From positions 66,156,001 to 66,220,000 of the forward strand of contig NW_024704742.1 in assembly GCF_018977255.1 (NCBI RefSeq): a stretch of DNA of 64,000 bases, given 5' to 3'. The position numbers were made by a program, and so were the translations under genes. Below, one piece after another: positions 6,581-62,795 of this stretch (position 1 is its first letter; each line of letters opens with the position of its first letter). The stretch comes from Callorhinchus milii (taxonomy: Eukaryota). Below the pieces are notes generated by a model. The model saw nothing but the letters and a program-made list of their open reading frames with translations, was not told where the DNA came from and ran no database searches.

Positions 6581-6639
6581 TATTTATCTTTCTCTCATTG
6601 GTCTCCACATATAGTCTGGGGTCTCCTTGGAGCTGAACT

Positions 6640-7011
6640 GGTGGGTCTCCAGGACCCCAGGGCACTGTTGATGATAGCCCAGCCAGCCTGGCTCATTGGC
6701 AGGACTTGAAAAGGCAGACCAGTCACTGGGGGCTGGAAATCATCCCACTCAGCTCCTGTTAACCCTGCAAACCAGAGCCCAAAGGTTTAGGGTGGTCCTA
6801 AGCAGCTCTTACCAACCTGTGCCTAATACTTACCGGAATTAGGTAAACAGGATGTGTCCCTCCAGGGAGAGAGTCACATTCCATCCCAACAATCTATCTC
6901 TGGATTTCCATGTGTAGGTGGGAGGGAGGCATGGAAATCTCAGTTTGGTTTGGACACTCTTAAGCATGAGGATGGGTTTCCGCATGTGTCAGACACCCGG
7001 CTGACCAAAAA
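6640..7011 (+). repeat. Unclassified family X, internally deleted, with 3' A-tail
   Basis: Aligns by eye with 9817-10112 (rc), 50290-50965 and 62445-62795; ends GTCAGACACCCGGCTGACCAAAAA. Confidence 0.85.
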
Positions 7012-7134
7012 TATTCCCCCAGTGCTGCAGTGGAGTGAACTCCAAGTCCCTAACATTGGAGCCTGAACTGGCAATCTTCTGACCTTCTGATTCAGAGGCC
7101 AGAGTGCTATGAACTGAGCCAGGCTGACACAAAA

Positions 7135-7186
7135 TTAAGCATGGTGATGGGTTTCTGCATGTGTCAGAAACCTGGCTGACTAAAAA
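7135..7186 (+). repeat. Family X, 3' end only
   Basis: TTAAGCATGGTGATGGGTTTCTGCATGTGTCAGAAACCTGGCTGACTAAAAA. Confidence 0.8.
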
Positions 7187-9104: not shown

Positions 9105-9816
9105 TCAGCTGTGAAACAAGTCTATCAGCTTGACACTGTAATTTTGAACGAGGCTCGTGTGAAAAAGTTTGGGGAAGTCCTCCCCAACTGACTATCCTGT
9201 TAGAACAAAACCCGATCTCTGGAACAGTATTTGCATTTATGTAGCACCCGGAGCACTTAACAATGGCGTAGTTTGATGCCGAGCCAGGGAGAGGGGGATA
9301 GTGACCATGAGGACGGTCAAAGAGGAAAGTCTTCAGGTGAGATCAGAAGACAGGTAAAGAGGGAGCAAAAAGGAAGGATCGAGCCAGGGAGTTCCAGATG
9401 TTCGGAGCATTAGTAAAAGGTGCTGCATAAATGAAAATTGTATTGTATTATAACTCTCCCAAACTCTCTAACCTCTGCAGCCCTTCTCTCCTTGCCCTCA
9501 AAACCCTATTAAAAATCTATCTCTTTGTTTGTGGCCTTATTCAACTCCTCAAATCTCCTTCCTACCTCACCTCCTCCTAACTTTGAAACAGTTTTTCTGT
9601 TATTAAAATGACTCGTACAATATCAAGAATTTGCCAAATCCTGGACGTTGTGAAAGGCTAAGAAACTAACAATAATAATTATTGGTTATTACTGTAAGAG
9701 TGTAGGGTTTTCTTTTTTACCCAAAGGAAAATTAATGACTGGAAAAGGTTGCCAGGGAGAGTGGTTGAGGCCAGCACACTGGGACACATTTAAAGAGTAG
9801 CTTGATGGATTGAATG

Positions 9817-10402
9817 TTTTTTGGTCAGCCGGGTGTCTGACACATAAGGTAACCCATCTCTATGCTTAAGATTATCCAAACCAATCTGAGAATTCCATGC
9901 ATCCCACCTACATGGAAATCCCAGAGATAGTCTGTTGGATTGGAATGCACACTCTCTCCCTGGAGAGATGCATCCTGGTTACCTAATTCCAGAAAGTATT
10001 AGGCGTAGGTTGGCAAGAGCCAAGGCTTGGGGACCCCAGAGTGTGTGTTGGGGTAACTGCTGGAGTCTAACTAGCTAAATCCACATAGCTTGCCATTGAG
10101 AGCGCTGTTTGGAGGGAAGAGATCAGATGAATTGAAGGGCCTTCTTCATTCAAACTAAACTTTCGCGAGGTAACAAGAGATGCAACTCAGTCAGGTCTGA
10201 GTAGATCCGGAGCTATGAAAAACAGTCACTGTACAGTAATTCCTAGTTACGTCCTGAGGCAGGACTCTAGTGAATAAGGGGCTCAATATAAATAGACGTA
10301 AATTCATGCAGAAACTTAAACACATGTTAATTCTTATTTTGTAAATATCCCCTAATTGATCTTGTGAAATTGAAGCTCTGCAACTCCATCAACACCACCA
10401 AG
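9817..10402 (-). repeat. Family X with ~216-bp cassette and an embedded CR1-tail piece
   Basis: Begins TTTTTTGGTCAGCCGGGTGTCTGAC; 10183-10398 matches 50476-50717. Confidence 0.85.
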
Positions 10403-24404: not shown

Positions 24405-24688
24405 ATCACCATCATCTCTGAGCCTGAAGGGATCAAAACTCTCATTAGGATTTACGCTGACACTCCAGTGAAGCTCCCACTGCTTGTTCCAGCTAAAACT
24501 ACCCTGCTAGTTAAGACTTTCACTCGCAGGGGTAACGGGAGCCAAGCAGGAAGACTGCTCCGAATGACTGGTCTGCCCTCAAAGTTTATCCAATGAATCA
24601 AGCTGGTTGGTCTGTCATGGAGCACCACAGACCCAGTCAGTGCTTGACCAAGACCGCCTCAGAGGGTTAACTCAGTTCTGACATTCCA
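24405..24688 (-). repeat. Family X, diverged 5' portion
   Basis: rc reads GGAATGTCAG..TGACAGACCAACCAG..GGGCAGACCAGTCA..GCAGTGGGAGCTT, as in 62445-62700. Confidence 0.7.
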
Positions 24689-24694
24689 CTACTG

Positions 24695-25375
24695 CACAAC
24701 AACAATGTACATTAATGCAGTACTCTTCACATAGGGTAACCTCTCAGAACACTCTACAAGGATGGGATCAGACCCCAAACAGGGGAGAGGAAGAGGCAGT
24801 AGGACAAGGTTTGACGAGGCAGCTTTTAAGATGTGTTGGGAGGTGGGAGCGATGAGAAGGAAGGGTAGAGGGAGGGAGTTCCAGAATCTGAACACTAAGC
24901 CAACGATAGTGGCGCAGGGAAGGCGAGGGGATGTACAGAAAGCCCGAGCTAGCAGGGTGTCACGTCTCCATGCTGCCAGCTCAACCCCACGAAGACAACA
25001 ACAATTTACGTTTGTACAGCATCTTTCATGTTGGGAGGACGTCCCAAGGTGTGCTAGTAGACAGTTAAGGGGTTTGTGATCAGGAGGAGTGGAGGCCAAG
25101 GAGGGTGGGAGTAGGAGGGTGACTGAAACCACGGTTGAAGAGGAGGATCTTGAGCCTGGTATTCAAGGAGGCAAGAGAGGGGGTCAAGGTTAAGGGACTG
25201 TGGGAACAAGTTCCTAAAGGTGGGGGCAGAAAGGCTGAAGGCTCAACCGCCAATGGTGGGGTGAGCAGGTCAGAGTTTGCTGAGTGGAGGAAGCAGACAG
25301 GTTGGTACGGGGTTAGCAGGTCACAGAAGTTGGGAAGGAAGGCTTTGAAAGCAAAGACGAGGATTTTGAACTCTA
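24695..25375 (-). mobile_element. Two adjacent L2 3' fragments
   Basis: Two (CAA)n rc tails at ~24697 and ~24995; L2 ORF2 C-terminal similarity. Confidence 0.8.
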
Positions 25376-32994: not shown

Positions 32995-33156
32995 GACAGT
33001 CCAGCCAGCCTGGCTCATCGGCAGGACTTCAAAGGGCAGACTAGTCACTGGGGCAGGTGACTGGGGCAGGTCCTGTTAACCCTAACTGGTAGGGTGGTCC
33101 TAGGTGGACAAGCAGCAGGAAAGCTTGCCAGACAGTGCTCTCAATGCGAGCTCAAC
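32995..33156 (+). repeat. Family X, 5' portion
   Basis: CCAGCCAGCCTGGCTCATCGGCAGGAC..GGAAAGCTTGCCAGACAGTGCTCTCAATG. Confidence 0.8.
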
Positions 33157-33230
33157 GGAGTCCTGTAGCATATTGGTTAAAGCACTCTGGGAGGATGTGA
33201 TCAGATGGGCCTTGTTTATCTAAACCATGT

Positions 33231-35661: not shown

Positions 35662-36443
35662 ACACCTACAAGGCCATTCACGGCCTCGCTCCCCTCACCT
35701 ACAATGCCATTCACGGCCTCGCTCCCCTCACCTACAAGGCCATTCACGGCCTCGCTCCCCTCACCTACAATGCCATTCACGGCCTCGCTCCCCTCACCTA
35801 CAAGGCCATTCACGGCCTCGCTCCCCTCACCTACAATGCCATTCACGGCCTCGCTCCCCTCACCTACAAGGCCATTCACGGCCTCGCTCCCCTCACCTAC
35901 AAGGCCATTCACGGCCTCGCTCCCCTCACCTACAAGGCCATTCACGGCCTCGCTCCCCTCACCTACAAGGCCATTCACGGCCTCGCTCCCCTCACCTACA
36001 AGGCCATTCACGGCCTCGCTCCCCTCACCTACATGGCCATTTACAGCTTCGCTCCCTCCTCCTCTCCGACCTACTATCCCCCTATCTACCTGCCCGTACC
36101 CTCCGTTCCTCTGGCTCCGGTCTGTTCCACATCCCCCACCCCAAGCACCCTATCATCGGTGGCCGGGCCTTCAGCCTCTCAGCCCCGAGGCTCTGGAACT
36201 CTATCCCCCAGTGCCTTTGCCGCTTCCTCCCTTTCCTCCTTCAAGGCCGGTCTCAAGACCTTTCTCTTTGACTGTGCCTTCAGCTCCCCTCTCAACTCTC
36301 AACCCCCTCCTCGCCCCCTCCCTTCCCTCCCCTCACCCTGACCATTTCCCCCCTTCTCGGGTCCTGACCCAACTGTCCAGTGCTTTGGGACGTCCTCCCG
36401 ACGTGAAAGGCGCTCTATAAATGAAATCTTGTTGTTGTTATTG
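35662..36443 (+). mobile_element. Young 5'-truncated L2 with TSD TTGCAT
   Basis: LSDLLSPYLPARTLRSS..IGGRAFSLSAPRLWNSIP; tail GGGACGTCCTCCCGACGTGAAAGGCGCT, (TTG)n. Confidence 0.92.
35664..36059 (+). repeat. 33-bp minisatellite, 11 near-perfect copies plus 1 diverged
   Basis: Unit ACCTACAA(G/T)GCCATTCACGGCCTCGCTCCCCTC. Confidence 0.98.
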
Positions 36444-44296: not shown

Positions 44297-44755
44297 CACA
44301 TTGACCAGAGTTTAATGTGACATCAAGGTCTCCTGAGGCAAAAAGACCTGATATTGATTTTTGTTTTGCTCGCCTGAACTTTAGACACCTCACCAGTTAT
44401 TTATATTACCTCACGATCCGCTAATACTGGGCTCCATCTTTGAGTTTTTATACCAACGTATTTTGGATCCAACACAGTAGAATGAGAAACTCCTTTGTGG
44501 AACTCCATTGCCGATGACAGTAAAAAAAAATCCCTCCAAGGTAAACCCAGCAAAAGGCATTTTTTCCCACGCCTCTGCTTAAAAAAAAATTGATTCAAGA
44601 TGAAGCCCAGTATTAGCGGATAGTGAGGTAATAAATAGCATCTTGCACTAATTTTAACTGATGAAGTGTCTGAAGTTCAGGCCAACAAAACAGAAATCTA
44701 AATCAGATCTCTGTGCCTCAGGAGACCGCAGGTCAGGTTAAACTCTGTTCAGGTG
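44297..44755. repeat. Long imperfect palindrome (arms ~150 bp, spacer ~145 bp)
   Basis: ATTACCTCACGATCCGCTAATACTGGGCT / AGCCCAGTATTAGCGGATAGTGAGGTAAT; GGTCTCCTGAGGCA / TGCCTCAGGAGACC. Confidence 0.95.
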
Positions 44756-48795: not shown

Positions 48796-49214
48796 CATAT
48801 TAAAACATAAGAATCTCAGTAGAAAGCAAAGGGCCATCCATCTGGTTCCCTTAAAAGTGGAGCAGGTTGCGATCAGTCCTGGTTGGTGTTGTTCCTGCTG
48901 CATCATAATGCGTAGGTTACGAATTTTCTTGGTGTAGGGTAAGCCTTGACAGTTCCTCATCTGTTATTCCCTAGGCCTCTGGTCTGACTTATTTGGTTTC
49001 CTTTGATGTGACCATTAAATATTTTTATTTACTTCGATCAGATTTCCCTTAATGATGACTTTAACTGGCTCGCACACACTGATAATTAGGTCCAGATGGC
49101 AGGTGCACTAGTCAAATGGTGGGTAGGGGGAGGAGGAAGAGAGGGGTGGCAAAGCAGATTTAAAGGGTCACAACTTCCTGCTTCAATTATAATTGTACAT
49201 ATGTGGAAGGAATC

Positions 49215-49323
49215 TACCTCTGTAATTTCCACGTGTAGGTGCGATGCATGGAAATCTCAGCTTGGTTTGGATACATTGATGGATTTCCACGTGTATCAAA
49301 CACCCGGCTGACCCGCCAAAAAA
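49215..49323 (+). repeat. Family X, 3' end
   Basis: GCATGGAAATCTCAGCTTGGTTTGGATAC..CACCCGGCTGACC..AAAAAAA. Confidence 0.8.
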
Positions 49324-49339
49324 ACAGCCAATTTGCAGA

Positions 49340-49484
49340 CTGTGACCACCCTACCTGTTAGGGCTTTGATTTACACTGATAACAGGAGCCGAGCGGGAAG
49401 AATCCTTGTCCCCAGTGAGCGGCTTGCACCTCCAAGCCCTGTTAATGAGCCAAACTGGGTTGGTCATGTCATCATCAATGCCCT
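49340..49484 (-). repeat. Family X, 5' portion
   Basis: rc CCAGGGCATTGATGATGAC..CAGTTTGGCTCAT..TCACTGGGGACAAGG..GGTAGGGTGGTC. Confidence 0.8.
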
Positions 49485-49770
49485 GGAGTCATGTAGCTCA
49501 GTGGTTAGAGCACTCACCTCATAAGCGAGAGACCTGGGTTTGATTCCCGGCAGGGCGAAATGTTGGGCAAGTTTCCTTACTCCACTCGACTCTGTTTACC
49601 GGAACCCGGTTGTTAGTCAGTTGGCGGATTGCTTTTCTGGGATAATAATCCCTAAAATAACACAATAATAATTTGGTCACTCAATCTACGACTGTTTGTA
49701 GGACAGCAATTGGCTGCCGCGTTTCACCCGCAAAATATACGGTCAATTCACTTTACAGTATCTTCTGTGA
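49485..49770 (+). mobile_element. SINE family A, 3'-truncated
   Basis: GGAGTCATGTAGCTCAGTGGTTAGAGC head. Confidence 0.88.
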
Positions 49771-50289
49771 ATGGCAGTCACACTGAAAAACATTTACTTA
49801 GTGGAGGGATTAAATAAACATGATCGGAGATAACACCCAGAGCACAAAGAACTGAATCTATGCTGTAAAGGTTTATATCTCTAAGTGTTTTAGGTGTCAG
49901 TGCAGCTCATTTAGTAGCACTCTCGCTCTCAGGCTGAGAAGTTCACAGTCTAGGCTGATGCTCCAGTGCAGTGCTGGAGGGGGGACTGCTTTGTTGGAGG
50001 CACTGTCCTTAGAATAATAATAAAAATAATAATAATAATAATCCTTGCATTTGATATCGCGCTTTTCACGTCTTCTAGACGTCCCAAAGCACTTCACAGA
50101 ATATACTGTAAAGAGAATTGACTATATTTTTGAGATGTTAAATTGTCTGCTTGTTCAGAGAAGGTGAAGTTGCTGACAAGAGTATGCTAGCCTGCCTGCA
50201 GTGCCAGCTCATTCTCATTGTTGTAATTTATTACCTCTAGAAACATCAACTGGAGATGGAATACCGCCTGTATTTCGATTCCTGAGCCA

Positions 50290-50965
50290 GGTGGGTCCGC
50301 AGTATTCCAGGGCACTGCTGAAAGCAGCACCAGCAGGATTTGGAAGGGCAGACCAGTCACTGCAGGCAAAAGGTCATCCCACTCAGCTCCTGTTAACCCT
50401 GCAAGCCAAAGCCCTAACGGGTAGGGTGGTCCTACCTGGACAAGCAGCGGGAAAGCTTGTCAGACAGTGATATCAGTGGTGTTGATGGAGTTGCAGAGCC
50501 TGGTGTTCAGTTTGACAGTGAGAGTTTCAATTTCACAAGATCAATTAGGGGATGTTTACAAAATAAGAATTAACATGTGTTTAAGTTTCTGCATGAATTT
50601 ACGTCTATTTATATTGAGCCCCTTATACACTAGAGTCCTGCCTCAGGACATAACTAGGAATTACTGTACAGTGACTGTTTTTCATAGCTCTAGATCTTCT
50701 CAGACCTGACTGAGTTGGATTCTATGTTAGCTGGTTAGACTCCAGCAGTTACCCCAACATACACTCTGGGGTCACCAAGCCTTGGCTCTTGCCAACCTGC
50801 GCCTAATACTTTCCGCAATTAGGTAAACAGGATATGTCCCTCCAGTGGGAAAGTACGCATTCCACTCCATTACACAGGAATTTCCATATGTAGGACAGAA
50901 TTTGCAGCTTGGTTTGGATACTCTTAATCATGGTGATGGGTTTCTCCAACTGCTCCCCAAAAAAT
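50290..50965 (+). repeat. Family X, longest copy, with 242-bp cassette
   Basis: Contains the 5' block, cassette 50476-50717 and the 3' block in order. Confidence 0.88.
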
Positions 50966-51131
50966 CGACCCTAGCTTTTTGAATTGAAATACAACCCATT
51001 ATGGAGAAGGGAGGTGGGGTTTTCCAAATGATATCTGTGAAACGTTTTCCCAACATTAAAGAGACTGTTTCAAACCCAAGGATTGTTATTATTTTATGCC
51101 TCTATGAAACGCCTCCATTCAAGGCTGAATT

Positions 51132-54985: not shown

Positions 54986-56404
54986 TAAATGAATTATAGA
55001 ATTCCAGGCACTTTCTCACAAATACCTTCCAGCTCCTATGAATGTAAACTGGGCTTTACACCCTCAGCTGAAAATAAGTCTACATGATCCTGCACCTTGT
55101 AGCTCAGTGTCGTCACAGTCTCTTTTACCGTTGCTGTATACATCGGAACAGCTGTGCTAAAGGGCACTGTAAGGTTGTAATCCACTCACAGGGGTCACAA
55201 AATGTCATGGACCCAAAACGGCAGAGCTTGAGCTGTGACATAATCGTCTGGACTGTGTTACAGACTTGAAAATGCACTAGTTGAGGAAAGCTTTCCTGTT
55301 TTCCAATACCAATCTCTATGCTGCATGCACTGACTTACTGTTTTGGTACAGTCTGAGGTGGCCTAAGCCATGTGAGTTTCCCCAGCAGCTTTTCTCCTGG
55401 GATAGAATGGGAAGGTGGACGTGATGGCTGCAGGATTCTGTGTGTTAGCTAGGCCTCACTAAACAAGTAAAAAGGATGTTCACTGTATACTAGCCATCCT
55501 GGCCAACAATTCCTCCAGCCCCTGGCTCAGTTGGTAGCAGTCATGCCTCCAAATCAAAAGACTGTGGGAAAAGGGTGACTGAAAGCGCAGTCAAAAAGTT
55601 AGGTCTTCAGGCGTGCTTTAAAGGTGGGGAGGGAGAGAGAGGGCATGGTGGAGGGACTCCAGGATGGAGCTCCAGAGAGTAAGGTGGGGGGTGGAGGGGG
55701 GGTGGCAGAGTGGCTGAAAGCTCACACACCAATCATGAATGGATCAGAGAGAGGACGTGAAACTGAGCAGAAGGAGTGGCTGGGTGATAGGAATTGCTGG
55801 AGGTTAAAAGACCCAGTCCATCTAGTTCGCCTTCTACCATCCTGGTAGTCGCATGGTACAATAATGGAGAAGTTGATAGTGATTCAAGGGGTGAGGCAAA
55901 AAGGGATTGAGGAAATAAATAAACAGAACAAAATAATACAGATTTATTTTTTTCTTCTAGTTTGGACTTTGCTATATAAATCCAAGTTTCTGTTGATATT
56001 GTTACCTGATTGTTTTTCAGTGTGAATGGGTGGAATGTGCACTCCCATTAGAGTGCAATAAGCTAATAATAATAACCCTTGTTCGATATAGCGCCTTATC
56101 AAGTCATCGAGACGTCTCAAAGCGCTTCACAGAATATACTGTAAAGTTTTACTTCTGTTTTTGTTTCAGATTGCCAGCATCTGCAGTATTTAGTGCTTTG
56201 TTTATACTGTAAAGTGGTGTGACTAGCTTGTGGTTGAACTCCAATTTGCACTCACAAAATCTTATGCACCTCAAACTGTTTCAGGAGATTTACTGTACAG
56301 TGCAGTGACTGCATTTTTATAGGCAATCACTTTGTACCACATAGAAGCTGTTTGTGTCCCCTGCATCTACCAATAAAATAATTCTATACATGTCCTCCAT
56401 CTTA

Positions 56405-56729
56405 ATCAATGTCCCACAAACAGCCCTGTAGTGAGTGACTATTTTTTCTTTATTTGGGGAGGATTGTTGGCCAGAGCAGAGGGATAAACTGCCTTCTCTT
56501 TCGAAGAGTGCCATGGAATCTTTAACCTCCGTCCGGATGGGATGGGCAGACAGGACCTCAATTTAACATCTCATCCAAAGTACAACACCTCTGACAATAC
56601 ATTATAACCCCAGCAATGCACTGGAGTGTCAGCTTAGACTCTATGCGATCCAAGTCTCGTTGTGGGGCTTGAGCCCACAACCTTCTGACTCAGAGGTAAG
56701 ATTACTACCAACTGAGCCAGGTTGATACA
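56405..56729 (-). mobile_element. SINE family B
   Basis: Reverse-complement core and head. Confidence 0.88.
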
Positions 56730-56879
56730 CAAGATTAAGCTGGAGAACATTTATAGAATTAGTTCATTGGCAGATGCAGGAGACACGAATTTGAAAACTA
56801 CAGTCATTGCACTGTACAGTAAATCCCATGTATTTTGAGATACATAATATTTTAAATGGGATTGAAAATGGAAAATCCA

Positions 56880-62015: not shown

Positions 62016-62444
62016 GTTGGATGTTAAAGATCCCATGGAACTATTCAAAAAGAGAAAGGAAGTTTCTCTCGATGTCCTAGCCAATAATTCCCGCAGATAA
62101 AATTAGTCACTCACTCCATTACTCTTTGTGGACCATTGCTGTGTGAAAATTGGCTGCCACATTCTCCTACAAATACAAAAATGCCCACAAAATATAGAGT
62201 CAATTCATTCTACAGTATATTCTGTGAAGCGCTTTGAGACATCTCGAAGATGTGATAAGGCGCTGTTATCAAATGCAAGGATTATTATTACTATGATTAT
62301 TACTACACTAACAATGATAACTGTAGAGTATTTCAACATTATAGGCATGATATCAAATACAAGCATTATTAATATTATCACTATTATGTTCATCAAGAGT
62401 AGACCTTTGGAGCGGAGCTGGTTTCAAGTTGACGTACTTGGCAA

Positions 62445-62795
62445 CGGAATGTCAGTTTAGTCAACTCTGTGGCGATCTCAGTAGTTTGGATCCTGAAGAG
62501 GATGGTACACAGTACTACAAGGCACTGCTGATGACAGACCAGCCAGTTTGGCTCATCATCAGGACTTAGAGGGGCAGGCCGGTCACTGGGGACAAGCATT
62601 CTTCCCACTTGGCTCTTGTTAACCCTACAAATCAAAGCCCCAATGGATAGGGTGGTACTAGCTGAAGAAATAGTTGGGAGCTTACCAGACAGTGCTCTCA
62701 ATGGCAAGTTTTATAGTTTTAGCTGGTTGGACTCCAGCATTTACTCCAACACACTGGGTCCTTAAGCCTTCGCTCTTGCCAAACAGTGCCTCATA
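62445..62795 (+). repeat. Family X, 5' and middle blocks, no cassette
   Basis: CAGACAGTGCTCTCAATGGCAAG runs directly into TAGCTGGTTGGACTCCAGC. Confidence 0.82.

Follow-up and report, generated by a model that had tools for sequence, protein, structure and literature searches.

An abundant, old A-tailed retroposon sequence in Callorhinchus milii, probably the 3' tail of a LINE

Introduction

A hairpin-rich, A-tailed repeat recurs in pieces along a 64,000-nucleotide stretch of Callorhinchus milii contig NW_024704742.1 (hereafter the window), which raises the question of what kind of element gave rise to it. An initial annotation of this stretch had proposed a non-autonomous retroelement copied from a structured RNA, perhaps of an undescribed family. 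The observations assembled below indicate, taken together, a real, abundant and old retroposon sequence of a known kind.

Copies of the family in the window

The window has a G+C content of 43.8%, and self-matching repeats cover 51-63% of it, mostly two SINE-like families plus L2- and CR1-like fragments; these labels denote resemblance to descriptions in part of PMC5499810 and to generally known features of such elements, not matches to a repeat library. Other repetitive structures include a 66-bp tandem array at 35663-36063, with units 95-98% alike, that lies within an apparent L2 fragment, and two inverted-repeat (fold-back) pairs at 44302-44751 and 56256-56853, of 120-155 bases and 67-75% identity.

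The family itself is represented by nine collinear fragments on both strands, and their recognition in the initial annotation as copies of one repeat is borne out: BLASTN within the window recovers matches to the copy at 6640 with E-values of 1e-9 to 1e-51. These decayed copies are 59-88% identical to one another (measured on the 25 pairs in which 50 or more bases align) and total ~2,150 bases, or 3.4% of the window, in which a search with profiles made from the nine pieces found no further copies.

On the forward strand, the 6640 copy extends from 6612 to 7011; the start first given for it, at 6640, lies within a genuine copy, but family sequence reaches further 5'. It begins ~25 nt into the known unit, lacks ~120 internal bases at a gap at 6800/6805, and ends with a stem-loop and A-run (6988..7011, A5) that match the consensus loose end of four public sequencing runs. 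It is followed on the same strand by a 52-nt 3'-terminal stub, also ending in A5 (7135..7186). The 9817 copy (9817..10110, reverse strand) is 5'-truncated, carries A6 and sits inside a CR1-like 3' end. The most diverged copy, the 24405 copy (24471..24697, reverse strand), comprises the 5' part only and is among the two that reach furthest 5'; its upstream flank is an L2-like tail, with the boundary placed within ~10 nt. An internal 5'-half fragment, the 32995 copy (32995..33150, forward strand), stops at a tRNA-headed SINE that begins at 33157. Two further pieces are a forward-strand 3'-terminal fragment with the terminal hairpin and A8 (the 49215 copy, 49211..49324) and a reverse-strand 5'-half fragment (the 49340 copy, 49344..49484) whose 5' side is cut by a tRNA-headed SINE from 49487 onward. 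One forward-strand copy is split by a stretch that is not family sequence, here called segment Y, into a 5' half (50279..50479) and a 3' half (50727..50945), the latter ending without the terminal hairpin and tail. Finally, the 62445 copy (62443..62790, forward strand) reaches furthest 5' and has no 3' end; up to 55 extra family bases may precede it at 62390-62442, in sequence that is unmatched in the window. The extents initially assigned at 9817-10402 and 50290-50965 do contain family sequence, but they also took in segment Y and, at 10106-10162, CR1-like sequence.

Within 49211-49484 the tailed 3' fragment and the antisense 5' fragment lie tail to tail, ~20 bases apart. Twin priming was rejected as an explanation of this pair, as the order of the fragments does not fit, and two events or a local rearrangement are likely.

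Abundance in public contigs

Public contigs were placed on positions 50140-51100 at 80% likeness for four of the 24 listed runs (X1, X7, X16 and X17). The copy region at 50279-50945 attracts 35,739 contigs in X1 and 8,944 in X16 (both organism A), 20,640 in X7 (organism B) and 15,729 in X17 (organism D); contig counts and depth are not equal to copy number, so these values are taken only to indicate that copies number in the thousands or more. The family is very abundant and is common to the three organisms. Exact family motifs gave no match in the metagenome contigs and viral contigs scanned.

A further trace of the repeat comes from an annotated protein. In the UniRef entry for a C. milii carboxylesterase gene model, the final 50 residues correspond to a translation of the family repeat (82% identity, E 1.2e-10), which reflects either a mis-prediction or exonisation.

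Ends and coding capacity of the unit

Counted from the most 5' position at which the 62445 and 24405 copies match each other, and as far as the terminal hairpin, the unit is ~530-540 nt long, to which a short A-run is added. The claim that a GTCAG/CTGAC stem stands just before an oligo-A end applies to part of the family: this hairpin with an A-run of 5-8 ends four of the nine copies (6640, 7135, 9817 and 49215) and forms the consensus loose end after 50944 in all four public runs (in X1, the loose-end contigs at 50944/50945 number 839 and 539), whereas the other five copies have no tailed 3' end.

The 5' ends are informative in eight copies, the 49340 copy being excluded because it is cut by a SINE. 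They range from about -8 to +485 relative to the known start, five falling within the first 100 nt and the remaining three much further in. Three tailed copies begin deep in the unit, ~245, 430 and 485 nt from that start, and the 5' ends of the two longest copies are at most ~60 nt apart. This pile-up is compatible with a fixed 5' end and with a truncation hotspot alike. Upstream of 50279 the public contigs continue with common sequence (673 contigs in X1, 30 letters visible), and in all four runs the loose ends before 50279 match, over 30 visible letters, the sequence upstream in the 62445 and 24405 copies.

Neither AATAAA nor ATTAAA, the familiar forms of the polyadenylation signal, occurs in any copy. 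The sense frame is open for ~70 codons across the 5' part, with the C. milii gene model as its sole match, and no Pfam family was detected in 10 of the 43 long open reading frames of the window or in four family frames. Likewise, no LINE protein was recognized in the three sense frames over 62381-62569, a weak test that covers at most 18 upstream codons; protein searches with the upstream frames gave one unscored candidate and four repetitive chance matches, and otherwise no candidate. The 24405 copy has at its 5' end codons for W-N-V-R, which we take to resemble the start of an APE domain. This resemblance was set down to chance, as no coding sequence follows and SINE copies contain this 10-mer at three further places.

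Retroposition and relative age

The A-run, the 5' truncations, the insertion within a CR1-like tail and the sense-strand folding bias together support retroposition via an RNA read in the direction of the A-tail. The 9817 copy, cut ~245 nt into the unit and keeping its A6, divides a CR1-like 3' end into two pieces (9735-9816 and 10106-10162) that follow one another in the same order as in three other copies of the CR1-like tail, and its junction shows at most four duplicated bases. No target-site duplication of at least 6 bases was found at any of the four tailed copies, all of which are old. The part of the initial proposal that stands is retroposition; its description of the element as non-autonomous and derived from a structured RNA drew no support from the searches for a head, an Rfam match or covariation, and folding per length is ordinary.

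Since SINEs adjoin the 32995 and 49340 copies, the arrangement of repeats makes the family likely to be older than some tRNA-headed SINEs, and it is likely to be younger than some CR1-like copies. The majority sequence contains 6 CpG dinucleotides where 34 are expected, a depletion as seen in old methylated repeats. In the region 7115-7186, the 52-nt stub directly follows a SINE-head sequence that resembles the family 3' end and is succeeded by four A's; it is possible that the stub was inserted through pairing with its target at this SINE-head sequence.

Segment Y is not family sequence

Segment Y (50480..50726, forward strand) is a low-copy sequence that replaces ~14 family bases. Its inclusion in the family was rejected: summed depth, itself no measure of copy number, is 8-108 there but peaks at 115,000-432,000 over family sequence, and in each of the four runs contigs leave the segment out, joining 50479 to 50727 with ~13-14 other letters between. 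The low-copy depth and the contigs bypassing it indicate a local duplication within one copy. Its likely source lies at 10168..10399 on the reverse strand, ~60 bases 5' of the 9817 family copy, and the two copies are 95% alike.

The stretch 50476-50726 looks like a 247-bp templated insertion, inverted with respect to a source 40 kb away. This likely source adjoins a family copy at nearly the same family position as the recipient, and a short sequence is shared at the junctions. The matching position and the short common sequence at both junctions suggest that pairing between two family copies guided a repair event from which the insertion arose. Relative to the duplicate and to a contig of organism B, 26 bases are missing from the source. 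Single contigs of organisms B and D cover segment Y (50480-50720) at ~92-94% identity, with 19 of 241 and 9 of 146 letters differing, respectively, and segment Y may be a conserved non-coding element.

Folding and covariation

All four stems that the initial annotation had located are found where it placed them. The ACCCT/AGGGT stem is present in the consensus fold, but one of its pairs is broken in two of six rows. The epithet "hairpin-rich" suits the majority sequence of the window copies (524 nt, with an imperfect 5' end), which folds with a z of -4.6 in the sense and -0.7 in the antisense direction and with -2.8 and -2.5 for its halves; single copies give z values of 0.06, -2.51 and -1.44, and covariation does not back the epithet. 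Three control retroposons from the window (majority sequences of the two SINE-like families and the CR1-like tail, 298-370 nt) gave sense z values of -2.3, -3.2 and -2.8 and show the same sense-strand bias as the family. Setting the majority z against these control values, the source RNA is predicted to have folded on the A-tail strand, per length no more than its ordinary neighbors.

The initial annotation had staked its stems on covariation, which is absent: compensatory changes were seen at 2 of 29 pairs in one comparison, at 0 of 5 in a second and at 1 of 19 when the named pairs were scored (236 of 500 shuffles scored as high). Each stem is represented by 3-6 rows. Covariation is not expected from copies in neutral decay either, so with this number of rows the result is no evidence for selection on the copies, and it does not speak against a structured source.

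Comparison with catalogued elements

No Rfam family overlaps any copy at the gathering threshold or at E up to 10, and no tRNA gene does so; both searches match the neighboring SINE head at 49487. The reported lack of a tRNA head in the copies is thereby upheld, as is the statement that the 3' end is unlike the L2 and CR1 tails of the window, to which no copy has a BLASTN match. The generally known patterns for paired Pol III A and B boxes are absent from the 5' end seen. A SINE headed by tRNA, 5S, 7SL or snRNA was rejected, with no head and no Pol III box pair within the 5' extent seen, and so was an L2- or CR1-tailed SINE or LINE, given no BLASTN match to the window tails. A hammerhead retrozyme or Penelope-like element was rejected as well, the well-known CUGANGA...GAAA core being absent from both strands of the nine copy pieces and the majority sequence; the CTGATGA that does occur in the family is base-paired in a stem. 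For an HDV-like motif, the R2 motif quoted in part of PMC5035012 is unmatched within 2 substitutions and Rfam gives no match at E up to 10; a looser HDV-like resemblance near 62465 was seen by eye only.

The literature covered on chimaera repeats and related elements yielded no description of the family, and repeat terms had no match in the supplement of PMC3964593. The main repeats of C. milii are reported in parts of PMC5381603 and PMC4350176 as L2, CR1 and SINEs, alongside many old elements, and repeat libraries have been built for this genome (PMC4350176, PMC12952989, each in part). In view of its abundance and these libraries, the family is likely to be listed already under some label, and the qualifier "undescribed" is doubtful.

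Origin of the family

We propose, with moderate confidence, that this abundant A-tailed repeat, of which the window contains decayed copies, represents the 3' UTR of an old LINE of the poly(A) type and that its copies show a pile-up of truncations. In sequence the family is unlike the adjacent L2- and CR1-like tails, and it is likely to be ordinary genomic debris. We prefer this origin to a copy of a structured RNA because it accounts for the same facts with fewer assumptions. In such a scheme, the LINE protein would nick an A-rich target and reverse transcription would be primed on the A-tail, presumably as target-primed reverse transcription. It would usually stop early, so that the tail alone is inserted, and many stops might cluster around one point ~450-540 nt from the tail, where a strong stem may be the obstacle. 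The terminal stem-loop and the hairpins in series could then be protein-recognition and folding elements of the source RNA, inherited by the copies and subsequently decaying neutrally. Among LINEs whose 3' end is stringently recognized, 3' stem-loops are frequent, and poly(A) forms the terminus of some such elements (PMC3747384, in part). Two traits of a LINE tail are present, namely the A-run at a fixed end (four of nine copies, four of four runs) and variable 5' truncation. Against it stand several observations: no copy in the window continues into a recognizable ORF2; the first 100 nt contain five of the eight informative 5' ends, and the starts of the two longest copies are within ~60 nt of each other; the five untailed copies require later deletion or insertion, with a SINE at the break in two; and the four tailed copies have no target-site duplication of at least 6 bases and the copies no AATAAA or ATTAAA.

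The clustered 5' ends would be explained by a fixed 5' end without any hotspot, and this is the basis of the leading alternative, to which we give perhaps one chance among a few: a non-autonomous, Pol II-transcribed retroposon of ~540-600 nt that lacks a tRNA head, starts at a fixed 5' end of its own and is moved by machinery supplied in trans; an RTE/Ingi/Vingi-type LINE that has lost its interior (a bipartite derivative) would be an example. It gains from the five informative 5' ends in the first 100 nt, of which none is demonstrably more than ~55 nt further up, and from the upstream sense frames, where no coding link was found; bipartite non-autonomous LINEs have been described for RTE, Ingi, Vingi and R2 (part of PMC5786205). 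However, the known 5' limit may fall short of the true 5' end, and four family motifs are absent from the supplement of PMC5786205. A bolder conjecture, which we hold to be improbable, is that the family is a headless, non-autonomous retroposon of ~550 nt, distinct from both Pol III SINEs and LINE tails. It would have spread to very high copy number in the chimaeras from an RNA that is structured throughout and begins at a fixed 5' end, and a diverged HDV-like self-cleaving motif close to the start might set that end.

We regard as distinctly unlikely a derivation by retrocopying of a structured host ncRNA, or from a SINE whose small-RNA head lies just 5' of the part seen. Sense-strand folding, the A-run and a 5' end that may lie beyond the part seen would fit it, but Rfam has no match at E up to 10, covariation is absent, the 5' end bears no A/B-box pair and folding per length is like that of ordinary retroposons in the window. 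Chances are slimmer still for a non-autonomous DNA element of the rolling-circle (Helentron-like) type, which would be read from the opposite strand and begin with a T-run and hairpin. Helentron anatomy matches the T-run and hairpin at one end and the want of a clear target duplication; however, the opposite end in the two longest copies has no matching sub-terminal repeat, hairpin or T-run, and the folding bias under RNA energies is on the A-tail strand. The C. milii genome is moreover reported to consist almost only of retroelements (part of PMC4350176). Least probable of all is a solo LTR of an LTR retroelement, which its size and a 5' boundary common to two copies might recall, but which should have TG..CA ends, a 4-6 bp duplication and random 3' flanks, and was rejected on account of the constant A-run past the 3' end across organisms, the 5'-truncated tailed copies and the absence of a 4-6 bp duplication around intact ends.

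Significance and relation to known systems

If the favored LINE-tail origin is correct, the family adds one more old LINE tail to the chimaera repeat library and would be useful for masking, and the repeat already contaminates a C. milii gene model. Should the 5' pile-up mark a structure-linked stop of reverse transcription, it would offer a natural test of the cause of LINE 5' truncation; should the 5' end instead be fixed, this would be a major headless non-autonomous family in holocephalans.

Among known systems, CmiSINE (SINE2-1_CM, SINE2B-1_CM) and SacSINE1-CM of C. milii (part of PMC5499810) are likewise high-copy and retroposed in the same kind of genome. They combine a tRNA head with a CORE or Deu domain and a tail derived from L2, and SINEs of this sort adjoin three family copies; the family aligns with none of the SINE or L2-like sequences of the window. 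The bipartite non-autonomous LINEs (Bov-A, RTESINE, RIME and NARTc, in part of PMC5786205) share with it a short, non-coding, headless body and a retroposon 3' end, whereas homology to a LINE 5' UTR or a ribozyme may set them apart from the family. Compared with the poly(A)-tailed APE-type LINEs (L1/Tx1-like and other clades), the window copies differ in that they run into no recognizable ORF2 and have no clear target-site duplication and no poly(A) signal, and in the 5' pile-up; yet, like these 5'-truncated elements, the family has an A-run and internal 5' ends, inserts at A-rich sites into older repeats, and possesses a structured 3' region with a terminal stem-loop.
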